NCBI GenBank assembly: GCA_951406725.2
Contig: OX597826.1
Coordinates: forward strand, 24,800,001 to 24,864,000
Direction: 5' to 3'
Source of the DNA: Octopus vulgaris
Taxonomy: Eukaryota
DNA length: 64,000 nt
The position numbers and the translations under genes are program-made. The notes under the pieces were generated by a model. The model searched no databases and had not been told where the DNA came from. It saw only the letters and a program-made list of their open reading frames with translations. Positions 39,383 to 64,000 of the stretch are shown piece after piece; position 1 is the stretch's first letter; each line of letters opens with the position of its first letter.

Positions 39383-39489
39383 CATATATATAAACGCAGG
39401 AGTGGATTAAGTCGATATAATCGACTTAATCCCTTTGTCCTTGTTTGTCCCCTCTATGTTTAGCTCCTTGTGTGTAATAAAGAAATAAG

Positions 39490-42943: not shown

Positions 42944-43042
42944 ATCAAACATGAACAAAGAGAGAACACAACAATGCGAGGAAGTGGAAAAAGTATAGTG
43001 TTATTGGACGCTCAGGAAAGGAAAGAAAAGAAAGAAGGAGGA

Positions 43043-43075
43043 TTTAACTTTTCAAGCGGAGCTCTTCGTCAGAAA
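43043..43075 (-). ncRNA. Minimal hammerhead-like motif, degenerate stem III
   Basis: Minus: ttt-CTGACGA-A-gagc(tcc)gctt-GAAAA-GTT-aaa. Confidence 0.5.
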
Positions 43076-43899
43076 CATAGAAAAATGAAAGGTCCAAGGA
43101 AGGGAAGACGGAGAAAGAAAATCGCCGACTATACACACGCGGTCACATATTGAATGACCAGAAGGATATATATATCTATCTATATATAAAACTGAGAATG
43201 TGTGTGTGTGTGTCTGTCTGTGTGTTTCCCTAAAACTTGAGAACTACACAACCAATCTCATTCAAATTTTACACATGCCTTACTATTTTTACAAAAGTAA
43301 AAATAGCAATTGGTATAAAATTGCATCAATGATTTGAACTTGAATAAGTGGTTTCACATGAATGGGAATAAATTAAAAATAAAATTAGCGTGCAGAAATG
43401 GAATAGTCCAGCTGGAGGTGTGCAATACCCTTTACCACGGCTTTTACATTAGATTATCTGTAATTAGCTAGCATTAAGTATCTATATGAAGTTTGGCTGT
43501 ATGTAATGTCTGTTTTCTCGAACAGCGCTTCTATTGAGTACTGTTATTATTATTACTGTTTAACTATTGTTATCACCTTTGTTGGTTCCTCGTAAGGGAA
43601 ACGTTGTTGTGTTGCATTTGTTAAATAATTGTAAACTGTAACCCTCCCCCTTTGGGAGAAGGGGCTTTGGTTATTGTTTAAAAATTGAATTCTGTCCCTG
43701 TTTGGGGAAATTGACAATATTTTCACCGTTTACACGGAAGCATTTTTGTTAGAATGCCTTCGATAGAAGAAAGTCAAAAAATTTTACCTGCTGCCGTCGG
43801 CGGGTGCGAACTCATTAAAATTAAAATGGAAGAAATACAAACCTATTTCGGACTGATCACCGACAAAGACAGTGAATCTAGGATAACACCACCAAACGA

Positions 43900-44265
43900 A
43901 ATAAAAAATTAAATTAACGAAAATACTATTGTCTATAAAGTATATAATGTAGAGAAAAAAACAATTTGAACACCAGGAGGAAAGCACCATCGAAAAGGGT
44001 CTTGGTGCGACTATGAAAGATATCTAACCAGAGGCGGTAAATTCGCCACAATAGAAGCAAGGTTCGAGTCAACGGAGAGTGCAAGGGAGTACTCGACTCG
44101 AACCCTGCAAAGTGGAAATATTTTATTTTTACCTTTATATCTGGGACATAGGACGTCCCAGATAAAAATTAAATCTCCCCCCAGAAGTAGAGGTAGGCTG
44201 GATTGTAGCCACACTTCTAAACAAGAGGGAGGACAAGATACAATTGATCGAAATTGCAAGACACG
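43900..44265 (+). pseudogene. Decayed, diverged paralog fragment of the 45924 ORF
   Basis: TIVYKVYNVEKK and RYLTRGGKFATIEARFESTESAREYSTRTLQSGNILFLPLYLGHRTSQIKI align with TITYRVYANGKKK and IFLARGIHFGTVVVQFKNESVARKMATRTVKTEKVFLLPS*LGRKTTRIRV. Confidence 0.75.
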
Positions 44266-45923
44266 AGCCTACAATTCCAGTCTGTTATATATTTTGAGTA
44301 TTGTTATCACTAGCGATATCAAAATATAACTTTGTATTTTGTATTTTATGTGTAGATGTATATATATAGATGTACATGTAATATGTACACATATATATAT
44401 ACACATGTAGTATCATGGGCAAAAAAAATGTTTAACTTCTTGCCTAGTGCGAGCCCACAGCAATATCATATCCTAGTGCGAGCCCACAGCAATATCATAT
44501 TTCATTCAAATTTTACACATGCCTTACTTAGGGAGTGTCATCGGCAAAAAGAATTTTAACTTTTTGCCTAGGGCGAGCCCACAGCAATATCATATCTTCT
44601 CCACTACGATTCCCTAAAACTTGAGAACTACACAACCAATTTCATTCAAATTTTACATATGCCTTACTTAGGGTCCATGTAGTTTCATGGGCAAAAAAAA
44701 TGTTCAACTTCTTGCCTAGAGCGATCCCATAGCAATATCATATCTTCTCCACTATTTCAGTATTACTTGTTAAAAGTGAGACAAAAATATTTCTCTATTT
44801 TATGTCAGATGCTTTCACTTTAACAATAAAAATAATAATAACAATTGAATTATATGTAGTAAGTAATAATTAAAATCAAACTAAAGTATAATATAATCGT
44901 AACATACAAAAATAAAAATAGCAATTGGTATAAAATTGCATCAATGATTTGAACTTGAATAAGTGGTTTTACATGAATGGGAATAAATTAAAAATAAAAT
45001 TAGCGTGCAGAAATGGAATAGTCCAGATGCATAATAAAAAATCAAATTAAAGAAAAGACTATTGTCTATAAAGTATACAATGTAGAGAAAAAAGAAGAGC
45101 TAACAATTCCAGTCTGTTATATATTTTGAGTATTGTTATCACTAGCGATATCAAGATATAACTTTGTATTTTGCATTTTATGTGTAGATGTATATATATA
45201 TATAGATGTACATGTAATATGTACACACATATATACACATATATACATGCACTAGCACTATGACCCGGCAACAACGGGTCTTTAATGCTAGTAAATATAT
45301 AAACATCATATAAAAATATATTGTACGCATAAGATCCACTCGACGTTCCATAAGAAATTTAGAAATAAAAATTGCAATAAAAGTTAGAGGTAATAATAAC
45401 AATTGAATTAAATATAGTAAATATAGTAAGTAGTAATTAAATATATTTTATTTTATTAAAATGGTAATTAAATCGTAATATAACAATTAAAAGAAAAATA
45501 GCAATTAGTATAAAATGTATCAAGGACTTGAACTCGAATATGTGGCTTTGCATGAATGGGAGAAATTAAAAGAGGAAAAATTTAATTGAGTGCAGAAGTC
45601 CAGTTGAAGCTGTGCGCATACCATTTACTATAGCTGCTAGATTGAATTATATGCTTATAAAGTAGCATTCAGTATCTATGAGAATTTTTGGGAGTACGTA
45701 ATATCTGGTCTTTCGCATGTAGCAGGTATGTAATTGTGCATTTGTTTTCGTGTACTATGTGTTGTGTTATTGTGCTTCTTATTTGAACCTGTGAGTTGCT
45801 GTTTAATTGTTGATTGTTAATTTTTATCGTTAAACGTTATTGTTACACGGTTTTTTTTTTTTTTTTTTCTCTCTGTGTTGAGACAGACAAGGAAGAAGTG
45901 GGCTGCCCCTCCCTAAGGGAGAG

Positions 45924-47216
45924 ATGGCTAGACGAAGTATGTTCGAAAGTGTGTCAGATTTATCAGCTTCTGAAGAAGAATTTGAAAAGGCGATAAAGAA
46001 AATGGACAAGCAATTAGGCAACGCATACGCAGGAGCGACAAGAACGGAGGAAAGAGAAATAGACTTGGCCAAGTGGCCAAGCTACCAGGCATTTATTAAA
46101 AAGGTCGGCGGTGAAGTAGAGTTGTCACCGCCACCAAAACGAAGAGAGTGGCATGAACGAAGGACCATCACGTACCGGGTTTATGCAAATGGAAAAAAGA
46201 AAATAGAAGTCGTCGGTATGGAAACAATAGAAGAAGTATTAAAAAGAACGGAAGAAGACATAATATTCTTGGCAAGAGGTATACATTTCGGTACCGTGGT
46301 GGTACAATTCAAGAATGAAAGTGTGGCGAGGAAAATGGCAACGAGAACGGTGAAGACAGAAAAGGTGTTCCTTCTGCCCTCATAACTGGGTAGAAAAACT
46401 ACTCGGATCAGGGTGGAGGGGATACCTCCTAATGTTGACGGAGAGTGGATAGTGGCAGCCGTAATCAGTGGATGTGAGGAAGAAGTTGACATCCTCCATG
46501 CTACAGTGAAAGATGAAGGCTGGAAGGGTGCAGTTTTGGAAATAAACGTGCAAGCAGAGGCTGAAATATTGGAACAATTGACTGAGAATATCAGAATGGG
46601 AAGTGTTATCATGAGAGTGTGGGTGGAGGGCAGAGCTCCACGTTGCTACAAGTGTGGCCTGAAAGGTCACATAAGAGCTAACTTCCCTCCCCCATCAAAG
46701 GAAATTGGTGCGGAACCTCAAAGAGAGGTAGTGGCCAACGAGGAAGAGCAGAAATCAATGGAGGAAGACACAACGGAAGAGGAGGAGGTACAAAAGGAGT
46801 GGGAAGAAGGCAGAAGAAGGAGGAAGAGAAGAAGGAAAAAAAATAGTGCTGAACCCCAATCCACCCCAACACTACCCGCACCCTCTGAGACCCACCCTTC
46901 CCCACCAACAAGAAAACAAAAAAAAGAAGGAGCAAACAGACAAGATACCGCAAAAAAACCTAGGCCCAATTTTCTAGGTATTTCGACGAAAAAAGACGTA
47001 AAAGAAATATTGAAAGACTACCACTGGTGTGACAAGGACAGTGATAGGTACGCTGTAATCTCGGAAGAACGTATAGAAGAATTCGTAGAAAAATATAATA
47101 GGAAAAACTATAAAGTGTTTAGATTTGAAATAGATGACGAGATGATAACGGAAATGGAAAAGAGATTTGCGATGAAAATAGAGCACAATGTGTATTACAT
47201 TCAGGATAAAGTATGA
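45924..47216 (+). pseudogene. gag/ORF1-like nucleic-acid-binding protein (~430 aa; RRM-like region plus zinc knuckle) with one in-frame stop
   Basis: ORFs 45924-46385 and 46413-47216 share a frame; TAA at 46383 where the paralog has Tyr; CYKCGLKGHIRANF = CX2CX4HX4(C>F); acidic and basic C-terminal tail. Confidence 0.75.
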
Positions 47217-47225
47217 AGGCCAGGT

Positions 47226-47261
47226 AAGTGATGCTAGCGGATGGGGCCGTTAGCATCACTT
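47226..47261 (+). other. 15-bp stem-loop just after the ORF stop
   Basis: aagtgatgctagcgg-atgggg-ccgttagcatcactt (one G-U pair). Confidence 0.8.
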
Positions 47262-47400
47262 CCATTTTTCATTTATCATTTTCATATTTCATTTTCCATA
47301 TTTATGTAATTGTTATGTTTTATGTCCCCAATGTTTGTATTGTCCCCTCTGTGTAGCCCTTTATGGGTAATAAAGAAACAATGTGTTGTGTGTAAAAAAA

Positions 47401-47482
47401 CATCCTGACGAGGGGAGTGTCAATTTTAAATATATGATATGTTTCATATTAATTGGTGCATCTCCGAAACGGCTCGTAGATG
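47401..47482 (+). ncRNA. Type I hammerhead ribozyme, canonical core
   Basis: catc-CTGACGA-gggga...tctcc-GAAACG-gct-CGTA-gatg. Confidence 0.8.
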
Positions 47483-47745
47483 AACTTTTATGTATTTTTG
47501 TAAATTTGTATATTTATCTTCTATGTATTTTTCTCCGGAATTTTAATTCGTCTTTTTAATATGTCATTGTATGTTTTATTACCCCAAATTTTTAATTTAA
47601 CAAATTTATACCAAACTAGCACTATGACCCGGCAACACTGGGTCATAATGCTAGTATATATATATATTAAATTATGATATATGTGTATGTATATATATAT
47701 ATATATATATATAGGGTGTGTGTGTGTGTGTGTGTGTGTGGGTTC

Positions 47746-47781
47746 CTTTCTATGGAAGAGCGTAAGCTCGAAACCTTAAAG
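47746..47781 (+). ncRNA. Degenerate copy of the 1518 minimal hammerhead-like motif
   Basis: cttt-CTATGGA-A-gagc(gtaa)gctc-GAAAC-CTT-aaag; flanks 47742-47870 match 1514-1645. Confidence 0.3.
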
Positions 47782-47864
47782 ACTTTTTCAATTCCCGAGC
47801 GTTATACTAATACATCTATTGTCTACACCACCTGTCGTCGTCTTTTGTTTTTTTCGTGAATTCT

Positions 47865-47923
<59 letters not shown>

Positions 47924-48206
47924 CAACAATTGAGGGTAAAATTAATTAATTATTAATTAATTTCACCAAGTGTTCAGTATGCAAAGGGACCATTTAAGGC
48001 GAATTCAAATTATTACAATATATAAAAGGGCTTAGTAAAATAAATTACTTTGCCGCATACTGAACTCATTAGAAATAGCAGCTAAAAAACTTTTTTAAAA
48101 ACCATTTCTAATACTTAAAGAAAATCTCTCTCATATAGTGTTTGGTCAACTCAACTCACGAAAGTTTGGGGGTAAAGACATCAAAAAATCAAATGCAAAG
48201 GTTATT

Positions 48207-48258
48207 TGAGAACGTACGTTTCAAGATTAGTCATCACAACACTTCTATCATCAGCTCA
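48207..48258 (-). ncRNA. Type I hammerhead, left palindrome arm
   Basis: Mirror of 48385-48436. Confidence 0.65.
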
Positions 48259-48384
48259 GAAACTCCTTGGTTTGGATTTGAAAACACTGAAAGTGAGAGC
48301 ATACTCTTTCGGCCTCTCATCGATGAGAGGCCGAAAGAGTATGCTCTCACTTTCAGTGTTTTCAAATCCAAACCAAGGAGTTTC

Positions 48385-48436
48385 TGAGCTGATGATAGAA
48401 GTGTTGTGATGACTAATCTTGAAACGTACGTTCTCA
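48385..48436 (+). ncRNA. Type I hammerhead, right palindrome arm
   Basis: tgag-CTGATGA-taga...tctt-GAAAC-GTAC-GTT-ctca; palindromic loop III; imperfect stem II. Confidence 0.65.
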
Positions 48437-48617
48437 AATAACCTTTGCATTTGATTTTTTGATGTCTTTACCCCAAACTTTCGTGAGTTGAGTTGACCAA
48501 ACACTATATGAGAGAGATTTTCTTTAAGTATTAGAAATGGTTTTTAAAAAAGTTTTTTAGCTGCTATTTCTAATGAGTTCAGTATGCGGCAAAGTAATTT
48601 ATTTTACTAAGCCCTTT

Positions 48618-50723: not shown

Positions 50724-50954
50724 TATTTCTTTATTACCCACAAGGGGCTAAACATAGAGGGGACAAACAAGGACAGACAAAGGAATTAAGTCGATTACAT
50801 CGACCCCAGTGCGTAACTGGTACTTAATTTATCGACCCCGAAAGGATGAAAGGCAAAATCGACCTCGGCGGAATTTGAACTCAGAACGTAACGGCAGACG
50901 AAATACGGCTACGCATTTCACCCGGCGTGCTAACGGTTCTGCCAGCTCGCCGCC
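50724..50954 (-). mobile_element. SINE family A with an alternative AATAAA-containing tail
   Basis: Family A head and body; tail ...gtttgtcccctctatgtttagccccttgtgggtaataaagaaata. Confidence 0.9.
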
Positions 50955-51129: not shown

Positions 51130-51326
51130 AATTGAAATATTTTAAAAATAATCAGAAATATTTAAACAATATTTTTAAGATATAAATAATATAATAATAA
51201 TATATATACAAGATAAGGGCAAAAGAAAAATTCTAATGCCAAATATGCCGAAACAAAAAGTGTCAATAACCATTATAATTTATGTGTCTCGAAACAAACC
51301 GATAGAAATTTCTAAAAAATTCGTTA

Positions 51327-51386
51327 TTACCGTATTGGTCTAATTTCGGAGTTAATTCATAAGAATTTTCTCCTCTTCAGCGGCAA
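51327..51386 (-). ncRNA. Type I hammerhead with AUA cleavage triplet
   Basis: Minus: ttgccg-CTGAAGA-ggag...ctcc-GAAATT-agacc-AATA-cggtaa; all stems pair. Confidence 0.8.
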
Positions 51387-51644: not shown

Positions 51645-54600
51645 TCTTGTTTCAGCTCAAAGCTGCGGCCATGCTGATGCACCGCCGTTTTGTGCTACAC
51701 TGTTATTACGAAGAGCCTCCTCTAATATGTGGCACTTGGTGAAGAATGGAGTTTGATATAGCTACTCTCATTTGCACCTCTTGCCGTGAGGTAGGTTTAT
51801 CTGGGACTCTCAATAGGAAGATGTCCATCTTTGATTTAAAAACCGCTACATCTATTTTGTGCAAGTTCCTCAAACTCTTTGGGAGAATATTAAAAAGCTG
51901 TGGGCCCTTGAAACCCAGACTGTTGCAGTAGCTGGTCCTGAAGCGTGATGGCATTGCTGGGATCTTTGGCACTATGCAGTGTCGTCCCGTTCTAGCATTG
52001 GTGTAGCTCACAATGCCAAAATTTGGCACAATTCCTTCCAGGATCTTCCATACATATATTACTGCATACCTCTCCCGTCTTCTCTCCAGGGAGTAGATTC
52101 TTAGCTGTTTCAACCTTTCCCAGTAGCTGAGCTGTTGCAAAGAGACGATCTTCTTTGTGAATCTTCTCTGGATTGCTTCAAGGTCCGCTGTTAATTTCAC
52201 ACTGGTGGGTGACCATAGCTGTGAGCAGTAATACAGGCGGCTGAGGACGAATGTCCGCCAGAGGACCATCATGGTTTCCTTATCTCTGGTTCTGAATGTT
52301 CTTAGGATTTCACCCAGCCAGTCGTCTGCACTTTGTCGCCATCCTGGTAATGTGCACTTGGAAAGAGGTATCATCACTCATGTCGATATCCAGATCCCTC
52401 ACAGACTTAGGCTCTGGGATTGAAATTCCCTGTGAACCGGTGTACCCTGTAAGTTTAATATTCAGTTTTGGATGCTGGTAGCGCAGGGCCTGGAATTTTT
52501 CAGCATTAAACTGCATATTATTATCCTCAGCCCATCTGTAGATTGAGTCCAACTCCTGCTGCAGGTGTGCAACATCGCTGGGGTTCTGTATTTTCTGCGA
52601 GACTTCCGTATCGTCTGCATAGCTTGCCAGAGTGGCTATCCGGGCATTTGAGGGCAAATCTGAGAGGGCCACTATAAAAAGCAGTGGTCCCAAGACAGTA
52701 CCCTGTGGAACACCGCTCACTATTTGTGTGTTCATAGAGGTGGCTCCATTAACCACTACTGCCCGACTCCTATCTTTCAGGAAGTCATGTAACCACACTC
52801 CAAGTTTTCCAGCTATGCCGAGGTCACGCAGTTTGTGGCATATCATACCATGATCAACCTTGTCAAAAGTTTTTGCAAAATCAAGGTGGATTACGTCCAC
52901 ATTTGATTTGTAACTGCCACAACACCCAGTCATAATGTTGTAAGAGCTGGGTCAGGCAGCTCCTACTTGGTCGAAAACCATGCTGGGTATCACCTAGCAA
53001 GTTATTTTCCTCTAAGAATGCGATTAGTTTCTTTCTGACTATCCGTTCCATGACTTTGCTGATGTGTGAAGCCAGAGAGATAGGCCTATAGTTTTTGGCC
53101 TCTGCTCTACTTCCCCCTTTATGTATTGGGCATATTATTCCCTCCTTCAGCTTGCTTGGAAGTTTGCCATTTATAAGAAAGCCCTGGAAGAGAATCTTGA
53201 GGGGTTTTGCCAGGGCATGCTTACACGCTTTGAGGAGGATTGCTGGGAAACCATCTGGACCAGCAGCTGAGTTTGTGTGCACTTCATCAATGGCTAGTAG
53301 GACATCTCCTTCGCTAATGTCAATATATTCTATTGTAACCGCCTCGCTGGTTATAGGTAAGGCGGCAAAGAAGTCCACTGGTTCGTTCACTTGTCTGTGT
53401 TCCAACGGGATGGTAAAGACACTTTTGAACTGGTCATTCAGCATCTCACTGATCTTAGTTGGGCTGTCTGTGAGGGAGCCATCCTTTTGGAGGAGGGTCC
53501 TATCTTGTAGTGTACTGAGACTGTTTCTTTCGCGTAATGAAAGAAGGCTTTGGGTTTGATTTAATGTTTTTTATAACCCAGGCTTCTTTGTCTGCTTTCT
53601 CCTTCATATAGGATTGTTGCAGCCTTTTTTCGATCTCCATCAGTGTTGTTTTTAGGCGGGACGTTTCGCTACTTTTGGGATGCTGGTTGAGACGATTTGC
53701 AACCTTCATCCGTCGTCTCATGAGGATCTTCCTGTCTCTTGGAATCTTGCTCCTATTTGTTTTGGCCTTGTGCTCTGGGACATATTTCTGGCATACGGCT
53801 TGCACAGAAGACATGAAACATTTTAGTTTCACGTCAATGTCTGGTGTGGAGAGACATTCCAGTCAGTCCTCTCTGAGGATCTCTTTTTGGATCGATTTCC
53901 AATCTGCTTTGTGGAAGTTCAGATTGGAGAGATTTCGGGTGCTTCCTTTAGGCTGTATGTCTCTGGTTACTTTCGGCCCAAACATAGACAGCTCTATTAT
54001 GTTGTGATCGGAAACTAATGTCGGTGTCAGTTTCACATCATGAATGATGTCCATATTGTTCGTGAAGCAGAGATCCAGAATGTTATTCGCCCTAGTTAGT
54101 TTAAGTACAACTTGCTCCATGAATAAGGCGTTGGTGAGGTTGAGCAGGGACTCCACCTATACTTGCTTGCAATGATTCATTCCTGAGAGTATGAGTATTG
54201 ACGGTGGGGAAGTTGAAATCACCAATAAGAAATATGGTCACGTGGTGTTCCAGATTCATGAGGATTTCTTTAATTCTTGTGAGGCAATCTTCAAACTTGC
54301 CTATGTGATTTGGAGCATCCGGTGGGCAATATGTATTGCATATGACAATATTATGTTGTCTTATGTATACAATTAAAGTGTCACATACCGAATTTGAGTA
54401 TGTCATTAAGACCTGGGGTGTGAGGTCATCTCGGATGTATACAGCAACTCCACCATGGCTCCATTCCCATCTGTCTGTTCGCAGTATGGCATAGTTTGGT
54501 ATGTGTACTTCTGCGTCCTCTATATCAGGGCTGAGGTGAGTTTACACGAGTGCTATGCATAGGGCTTGATTGCATGCAGTAAGATCTCTCAGGAAAGAAA

Positions 54601-59308: not shown

Positions 59309-59384
59309 AATGTACTGATGAAGTCACGGACACTTGAATTATGCAAGTAATTCTTTTGTTAAGACCGAAACCGAGGTATGCATT
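59309..59384 (+). ncRNA. Type I hammerhead, canonical core
   Basis: aatgta-CTGATGA-agtc...gacc-GAAAC-CGAG-GTA-tgcatt. Confidence 0.8.
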
Positions 59385-59502
59385 TAAGTCTGTTATTTAT
59401 ATAATTTTTCATATGTCATGCCCGCGAAAGTTGGTTCTGGTGTTCGCTGAATTCTTCCTCTAGAGAATTTCCCTTGTAGTTATATATGTATATATATATA
59501 TG

Positions 59503-61961: not shown

Positions 61962-64000
<2,039 letters not shown>

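Follow-up and report, generated by a model that had tools for sequence, protein, structure and literature searches.

In terminons, a zinc-knuckle open reading frame (ORF) and a 3′ hammerhead ribozyme are parts of one element. The locus analyzed here, 43175–47654 of a 64,000-nt stretch of Octopus vulgaris DNA (OX597826.1; "the window" denotes that whole stretch, and coordinates are positions in it), lies in a 2.8-Gb genome rich in microsatellites and combined such an ORF and such a ribozyme with Helitron ends. The closest described systems, as given here and below in the accessible text of the sources cited, were (i) non-autonomous Helitrons in which other sequence is captured or nested (Helraiser/Helibat; PMC4778049), which shared with the locus the 5′-TC, the 3′ hairpin plus CTAG, A/T flanks, and the absence of own coding capacity, but differed in cargo, which was here a Penelope pseudo-long terminal repeat (pLTR) with hammerhead plus a nested long interspersed nuclear element (LINE) consisting of ORF1 only; (ii) Hydra-clade Penelope-like elements (PLEs; PMC8557442), which shared motifs CxCX5C, CxxC, CxH, and DKT and (TA)n insertion, while the present locus kept merely 21 codons and part of the pLTR, spreading inside a Helitron; and (iii) Chlamys-2_cBra (PMC8557442), which likewise had a zinc-knuckle ORF and a 3′ hammerhead together, but as parts of one element, whereas the ORF here had been inserted separately and had a duplication and a tail of its own.

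The region 43175–47654 was a tandem of three non-autonomous Helitron pieces (units 1 to 3; Table 1), in which, very probably, three unrelated elements had been stacked: a rolling-circle shell, a scrap of a Penelope element with its ribozyme, and a LINE fragment inside that scrap. The three transposons were, in all likelihood, nested such that an ORF1-only Tx1-type insertion interrupted the Penelope 3′ end in the last Helitron piece, with ORF and ribozyme as decaying passengers. The transposon kinds are known ones in an undescribed combination; no description of Helitron, Penelope pLTR/hammerhead, and ORF1-only LINE together was found in the open-access literature.

Shells of the unit-3 type (subfamily B) were found both filled and empty. 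Empty shells joined 45767 to 47378 with a single copy of a 13-mer (9/9 fetched), and the same empty joint was present in contigs of 4/4 public runs; contigs in those runs (presumed RNA; contig sets cannot show ends) also extended across 47478, the predicted ribozyme cut site. In filled shells, a 13-bp duplication flanked the insert on both sides, the hammerhead starting 7 nt further on. An earlier note on this DNA had overlooked this duplication as well as the Penelope ORF end. Eight full filled copies were found elsewhere at 90–94% identity, and because Helitron ends, ORF1, and hammerhead co-occurred at these other loci, the filled shell must have been copied as a unit. The co-occurrence that the earlier note had suggested checking was confirmed to that extent, but it did not hold from the ribozyme side: 28 of the 30 best hammerhead DNA matches had no upstream ORF, and only two (window included) had one. 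The 5′ junction and the 13-bp duplication were identical in 8/8 full filled copies, and divergence was alike in shell (4.0%) and cargo (5.0%). One insertion, followed by passive DNA-level copying with the shell, fits best and is likely. A filled ancestral form, with empty shells arising by recombination between the two 13-bp repeats, would account for the empty form being equal to the precise excision product; it is nevertheless hardly credible, being refuted by the outgroup, namely free Penelope copies ~20% diverged from the shell that ran uninterrupted through the site, and the insert moreover terminated in a LINE tail.

ORF1 and ribozyme decayed in the shell without selection. All eight filled-shell ORFs were broken by an early stop or frameshift; the ratio of nonsynonymous to synonymous polymorphism (pN/pS) among filled copies was 0.78 over 225 conserved codons; and the private changes in their ORFs (25 synonymous of 96, p = 0.39, 6 stops) were consistent with neutrality. 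The median omega between free ORF1 lineages was 0.12. The hammerhead core was intact in 3/8 full filled copies and in 5/22 subfamily-B shells picked by other sequence; core substitutions in the latter exceeded those in the flank [13/216 (6.0%) vs. 42/1971 (2.1%)], and the shell therefore does not preserve the ribozyme. The earlier note had proposed a functional chimera, in which the Helitron ends mobilise an ORF1 gene and the hammerhead finishes its RNA. The retention of all three parts in eight full copies, the intact ribozyme core in the window in the same sense as the ORF, and the recurrence of ORF1 sequence in shells of the Helitron subfamilies A, B, and C would agree with this. Such a chimera is nonetheless very unlikely: it is contradicted by the neutral decay (omega ~0.8, the selection check suggested earlier giving no sign of selection on the ORF in the shell), by the small share of intact ribozymes, by the many ribozyme matches lacking the ORF, by the own tail and duplication of the ORF module, which made it a later insertion, and by young intact ORF1 array units without hammerhead. 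The hammerhead, in turn, is very probably part of a Penelope pLTR.

This hammerhead contained CUGACGA, GAAA, and GUA (47476–47478), with stems I/II/III of 4/14/3 bp, and it was the only match of a motif-plus-stem test within 43000–48000; Rfam listed no hammerhead here at gathering level or at E ≤ 5, and the motif was tested by hand. The cores and three helices noted earlier were present, but judged by its stems the ribozyme is of the PLE minimal type rather than the usual metazoan form. It resembled the PLE minimal hammerheads (PMC4209133) in that stem II was long and stems I and III were short, and in its inverted 5′ copies, with stem II of 14 bp compared to the 7–8 bp reported there; PLE minimal hammerheads with unstable stem III are reported to act as dimers with low activity (PMC4209133). 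The predicted monomer energy was −13.4 kcal/mol for the hammerhead fold vs. −16.7 kcal/mol for an alternative fold. Among 20 copies selected by core pattern, 96.7% of cells were paired vs. 29–42% when the alignment was slid, and covariation in this alignment was not above shuffles.

The source of the hammerhead was very probably a Hydra-type Penelope element, whose 3′ end had become trapped in the shell. The core pattern occurred in 46 copies (control 0), many of them outside shells, and the non-shell hammerheads sat behind GIY-YIG ORF ends (CxCX5C, CxxC, and CxH), beside inverted 5′ copies of themselves. Free Penelope relatives (L148, L154, and L160) displayed the CxCX5C linker, CxxC, and CxH, with Pfam GIY-YIG matches at E 9e-4 and 6e-3, below the cut-off; DKT and RWR motifs were present in L166/L327, DKT being in a linked inverted reverse transcriptase (RT) piece. 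These non-shell loci showed the marks listed for the Hydra clade (PMC8557442). Locus L322 was progenitor-like, combining a Helitron 5′ end and the same inverted piece/pLTR with Penelope RT/endonuclease sequence. TATAAA 45656 and GTATGT 45726 were retained in most free Penelope copies and may be a candidate pLTR promoter and intron start. Three further features of this kind were seen in the window: (i) a second hammerhead-like motif at 59310–59385 (+; CUGAUGA, GAAA, GUA, and 5-bp stem I), probably of another Penelope pLTR; (ii) a hammerhead-like motif at 51300–51385 (−), of a family that in L023 and L025 follows the ORF1 insertions; and (iii) a Penelope GIY-YIG endonuclease remnant at 63345–63710 (−), 35% identical to L148.

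The homologous upstream sequence claimed for unit 3 was found (45489–45715 vs. 43293–43520), but this unit started at 45292 rather than 45370. The shared block was Penelope 3′ sequence of two subfamilies, 74% identical to each other. In unit 1, the sequence that came after it was the 5′ part of another Tx1-type element of greater age; the two Penelope ends had thus been hit separately, and the shared context did not denote a stable family, as had been supposed. The decayed ORF1 paralogue reported in unit 1 was indeed present (43760–44293), with 26% identity to the unit-3 ORF (E 4e-11) and 35% identity to the Tx1 ORF1 of locus L257 (E 1e-21). Out of 27 free ORF1 loci, four had a hammerhead 100–170 nt downstream, and several stood directly before another ORF1; in L077, ~25 nt separated the end of a Tx1 ORF2 tail from a following hammerhead-like motif, the core of which had one change. 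From these few cases, we infer a possible preference for pLTRs and Tx1 5′ regions. LINE landing ~30 nt behind a TATA box was considered and rejected: this insertion lay ~100–110 nt behind TATAAA 45656, which does not fit.

The insert itself most likely belongs to the Tx1 clade. Its near-intact ORF of 430 codons, as described before, carried a TAA stop in frame as codon 154 (46383), and its knuckle had F (46683) instead of the final C; the stem-loop and AATAAA reported downstream were likewise present. The ORF1 family was 37% identical to ORF1 of a complete element of the same genome carrying an apurinic/apyrimidinic endonuclease (APE), RT, and zf-RVT, and the ORF1 module shared its 3′ tail with that element. 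Structure prediction for the conserved core (predicted local distance difference test score, pLDDT, 83) gave two RRM-like domains before the CCHC knuckle; the best VIA-align Z scores were 9.8 (root-mean-square deviation 29) and 8.7 (root-mean-square deviation 2.5 over 78 residues), showing only a common RRM/ferredoxin-like arrangement. This alignable ORF1, the shared tail, and the predicted two-RRM-plus-knuckle architecture together led us to identify an ORF1-only LINE derivative. In the comparison with retroviral gag, the core model was alpha/beta RRM-like with tandem RRM proteins as top matches, the remaining ORF being outside the model; no LTRs were seen at the locus. Pfam listed zf-CCHC alone for the ORF, below threshold; a word-index protein search returned five octopus proteins with no function given, and a full HMMER search returned 296 unnamed relatives at E ≤ 0.001. 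Free ORF modules ended at the same AATAAA tail in unrelated flanks, and 11 of 18 examined had 13–23 bp duplications, mostly differing in sequence. HAL1, HeT-A, and Ag-Sponge (PMC5753468 and PMC5786205) are alike in having ORF1 only, a LINE 3′ tail, target duplications, and purifying selection between lineages, but the origins given there are L1, Jockey, and CR1, instead of a Tx1-type element. The tail at 47335–47380 nearly matched both the full Tx1 tail and that of an abundant repeat resembling short interspersed nuclear elements (SINE-like), also present at 39441–39488 and 50726–50770; this suggests that the SINE-like repeat uses the machinery of the Tx1-type LINE. A non-LTR RT fragment, 31% identical to Tx1 ORF2, was located at 52601–52894 (−).

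As to the Helitron shell, the TC start and both hairpin-CTAG ends claimed for the locus were present, with A before the former and T directly after each of the latter, and no RT or replication initiator/helicase (Rep/Hel) match was found inside 43175–47654, again as stated before. The shell 3′-end pattern had 4282 genome matches (control 0). Shell copies opened with TC-TA run-AAAACTGAGAATG and closed with hairpin-CTAG in unrelated flanks; for the ends shown, nearly all had A before TC and T after CTAG, though flanks were often TA runs. The three units displayed different subfamilies: (i) unit 1 was a subfamily-A shell, a kind with at least 40 copies scored at 91–96% and no sense hammerhead motif in any of the 30 fetched subfamily-A copies; (ii) unit 2 matched unit 1 in three blocks at 92–98%, in line with its earlier description as a deleted copy, but was not a local deletion, belonging to a multi-copy subfamily whose first deletion junction had 1233 matches and whose second deletion was common to 4 of the first 30 sampled shells; and (iii) unit 3 was a subfamily-B shell from which ~500 bp were missing at the 5′ end. 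The sequence joining unit 2 to unit 3 had a single genome occurrence with ≤2 mismatches allowed, and the whole 4.5-kb arrangement was found once. The joined pieces resembled those expected from terminator read-through, which has been demonstrated for Helraiser (PMC4778049); read-through would explain the tandem, and tandem insertion plus deletion would do so equally well. Another tandem Helitron array, with four shell 3′ ends spaced ~2 kb, was seen at G000:C1:77347512-77353637. Rep/Hel elements were plentiful (1172 candidates, 150 scored). One of nine examined Rep/Hel loci, L216/L217, carried Helitron_like_N and PIF1; it resembled the shell in its 5′ layout and almost matched it in the core of the 3′ hairpin. 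L216:5524 to L217:~1670 (G000:C7:58757500-58763700) was a young multi-copy autonomous-type Helitron with STPR, Rep, and PIF1.

Table 1. Features of the locus 43175–47654 in the window
Feature	Coordinates	Strand	Remark
Non-autonomous Helitron 5′ end: TC, TA run, AAAACTGAGAATG, GT/GTCT repeat	43175–43284	+	usual 5′ body mostly deleted in this copy
Penelope 3′ untranslated region (UTR)/pLTR-derived, subfamily A	43290–43520	+	74% to 45489–45715
Older Tx1-type element, 5′ part with decayed ORF1	43521–44264	+	boundary at 43521 placed where Penelope homology ends
Unoccupied equivalent of site filled elsewhere by young ORF1-only units and full Tx1	43948–43990	+	
Subterminal segment resembling far end of Penelope pLTR	44265–44409	+	85% (L090 and L104); subfamily-A 3′ hairpin absent here
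Unit 2: Helitron body sub-repeats plus doubly deleted subfamily (C-del), closing hairpin and CTAG 45250–45291	44404–45291	+	
Inverted pLTR remnant, 5′ side of captured Penelope fragment	45292–45321	−	5′ ~500 bp of subfamily-B shell missing at locus
Hydra-type Penelope ORF, last 21 codons plus stop (CxH motif after GIY-YIG domain)	45322–45387	+	85% to L148, E 7e-8
Penelope 3′UTR/pLTR with TATAAA 45656 and donor-like GTATGT 45726	45388–45767	+	
Target-site duplication, left copy	45757–45767	+	2 bp shorter here than the 13 bp of other filled copies
Probable ORF1-only Tx1-type retroposon insert: 5′UTR, ORF1, stem-loop 47226–47261, terminal stem-loop, AATAAA 47369–47374	45768–47380	+	
Pseudogene of ORF1 (430 codons) with stop as codon 154 and disrupted CCHC knuckle (46644–46685)	45924–47216	+	
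13-bp target-site duplication, right copy	47381–47393	+	
Type I minimal hammerhead of Penelope pLTR	47401–47482	+	predicted cut after 47478
pLTR remainder	47483–47612	+	ends where Helitron 3′ end starts
Helitron 3′ hairpin plus CTAG	47613–47654	+	T after

A long near-perfect inverted repeat at 48146–48500 (centre ~48320), resembling a miniature inverted-repeat transposable element, was also seen in the window.

Relatives of the ORF1 insert were found in young arrays. A protein search gave 8685 candidates, many of them in 1.75-kb tandem arrays, which consisted of ≤14 young ORF1-only units placed head to tail, often followed by a complete Tx1-type LINE (ORF2 of 1132 aa), at one shell site; examples were G000:C2:138769550-138792706 (L061-L064 and L221), C17:67745062-67759279 (L065-L067 and L220), and C8:32267189-32281364 (L078-L080). 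Out of 41 young loci fetched, 29 had a shell of the unit-1/2 type at one or both ends, and several of the other 12 exceeded the fetched DNA. The arrays started at the equivalent of 45090/43955 and resumed at 43975, full Tx1 elements at that site had a 12–13-bp duplication on each side, and a Y-type unit stood at the 3′ end of most arrays containing Y. Thirty shells sampled independently of cargo comprised 20 empty, four deleted like unit 2, five filled (three element types), and one with another insert. Between-locus divergence was 4.1–4.6% for shells, 0.6% for Tx1 ORF1, 1.2% for unit type Y, and 2.8% for type X, figures lowered by the identity filters applied (96% for Y and 90% for the others). 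Repeated insertion of relatives of the LINE at one spot in such shells is likely; X units diverged by 1.3% within a locus, less than between loci, and local duplication therefore also plays a part. A reading of the 1.75-kb arrays as coding retrozymes was rejected, the units being without hammerhead. The locus did not match a retrozyme either, with a single hammerhead in 43000–48000. Tx1L in Tx1D (Xenopus) and Tx1-Mar/SINEU in Mariner-N4_AMi (PMC4494074 and PMC1950540) similarly join a Tx1-type LINE and its dependants at one non-autonomous DNA-transposon site, with tandem insertions sandwiching the duplication; unlike these, the octopus host was a Helitron, the site was located in what is left of the decayed ORF1 of an older Tx1-type element, and ORF1 was encoded by the dependants, which formed the long arrays described above. 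No description of such arrays or site use was found in the open-access literature, including the accessible text of the O. vulgaris repeat paper (PMC13282606).

Several points weighed against the reading of three nested transposons: (i) in a 435-bp shell tree, which was star-like with weak support, filled shells were not one clade; (ii) for this locus, no genomic site in the empty state was found, and with TA runs as flanks the A/T rule was weakly tested; (iii) eight other Rep/Hel loci had no match to the shell ends, and L216/L217 is a candidate mobiliser not proven as such, its ends being similar but not identical to those of the shell; and (iv) the Tx1 label rested on domain order, fish homologues with ZCCHC3-type ORF1 domains, and target behaviour rather than on a position among named references in a tree. 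Since the shell tree failed to unite the filled copies, the single insertion rests on the common junction and the ages. The intermingling of filled and empty shells in that tree, together with the site specificity of relatives in subfamily C, would also be expected if the filled subfamily-B copies were separate site-specific insertions of ORF1 elements into already dispersed empty shells. That explanation is nonetheless improbable: all eight full copies had the same 5′ junction and 13-bp duplication, the cargo was not younger than the shell (5.0% vs. 4.0%), unlike in subfamily C (0.6–1.2% vs. 4.1–4.6%), and there was no purifying signal among filled copies.

Under the nested-transposon reading, the locus would have been assembled as follows: (i) a Hydra-type Penelope element would have inserted itself into a Helitron shell at the TA run, a state of which progenitor-like copies were seen, and a deletion, probably in this order, would have left the Penelope ORF end, pLTR, and hammerhead in a 1.3-kb subfamily-B shell; (ii) an ORF1-only retroposon, whose insertion with the 13-bp duplication is directly observed, would have entered upstream of the hammerhead with RT/endonuclease presumably supplied in trans by a full Tx1, as the common 3′ tail suggests; (iii) a Rep/Hel protein of outside origin would have replicated the shells, whether empty or filled, the observed decay of ORF1 and ribozyme coming afterward; and (iv) a subfamily-A copy, a C-del copy, and a 5′-truncated filled subfamily-B copy would have been joined via read-through of inner terminators or tandem insertion plus deletion. 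For an ORF1 transcript, the likely end would be the AATAAA tail of the module itself, which precedes the ribozyme.

In a broader reading, toward which we lean only slightly, a Tx1-type LINE and its long-lived ORF1-only partners would home on scraps that carry promoters (in Penelope pLTRs, upstream of the hammerhead, and in older Tx1 copies, the 5′ parts), and Helitron amplification would have turned these into ~1,200 dispersed pads, on which HeT-A/TART-like head-to-tail ORF1 arrays build away from telomeres. If this homing is true, two earlier rounds of the cycle would be preserved in the window as a fossil record, with unit 1 as an unoccupied pad. The locus is in any case a caution that an ORF, a ribozyme, and Helitron ends co-occurring in many copies need not be one system, and that the layers are separable by empty-site, duplication, and dN/dS tests. 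The remaining interest lies in a Tx1-type LINE and ORF1-only dependants that use a site amplified by a Helitron and present, filled or empty, in thousands of copies within one genome; this target-site relation, which belongs to the relatives and not to this copy, would permit tests of LINE target choice and of why ORF1-only elements keep ORF1 under selection.

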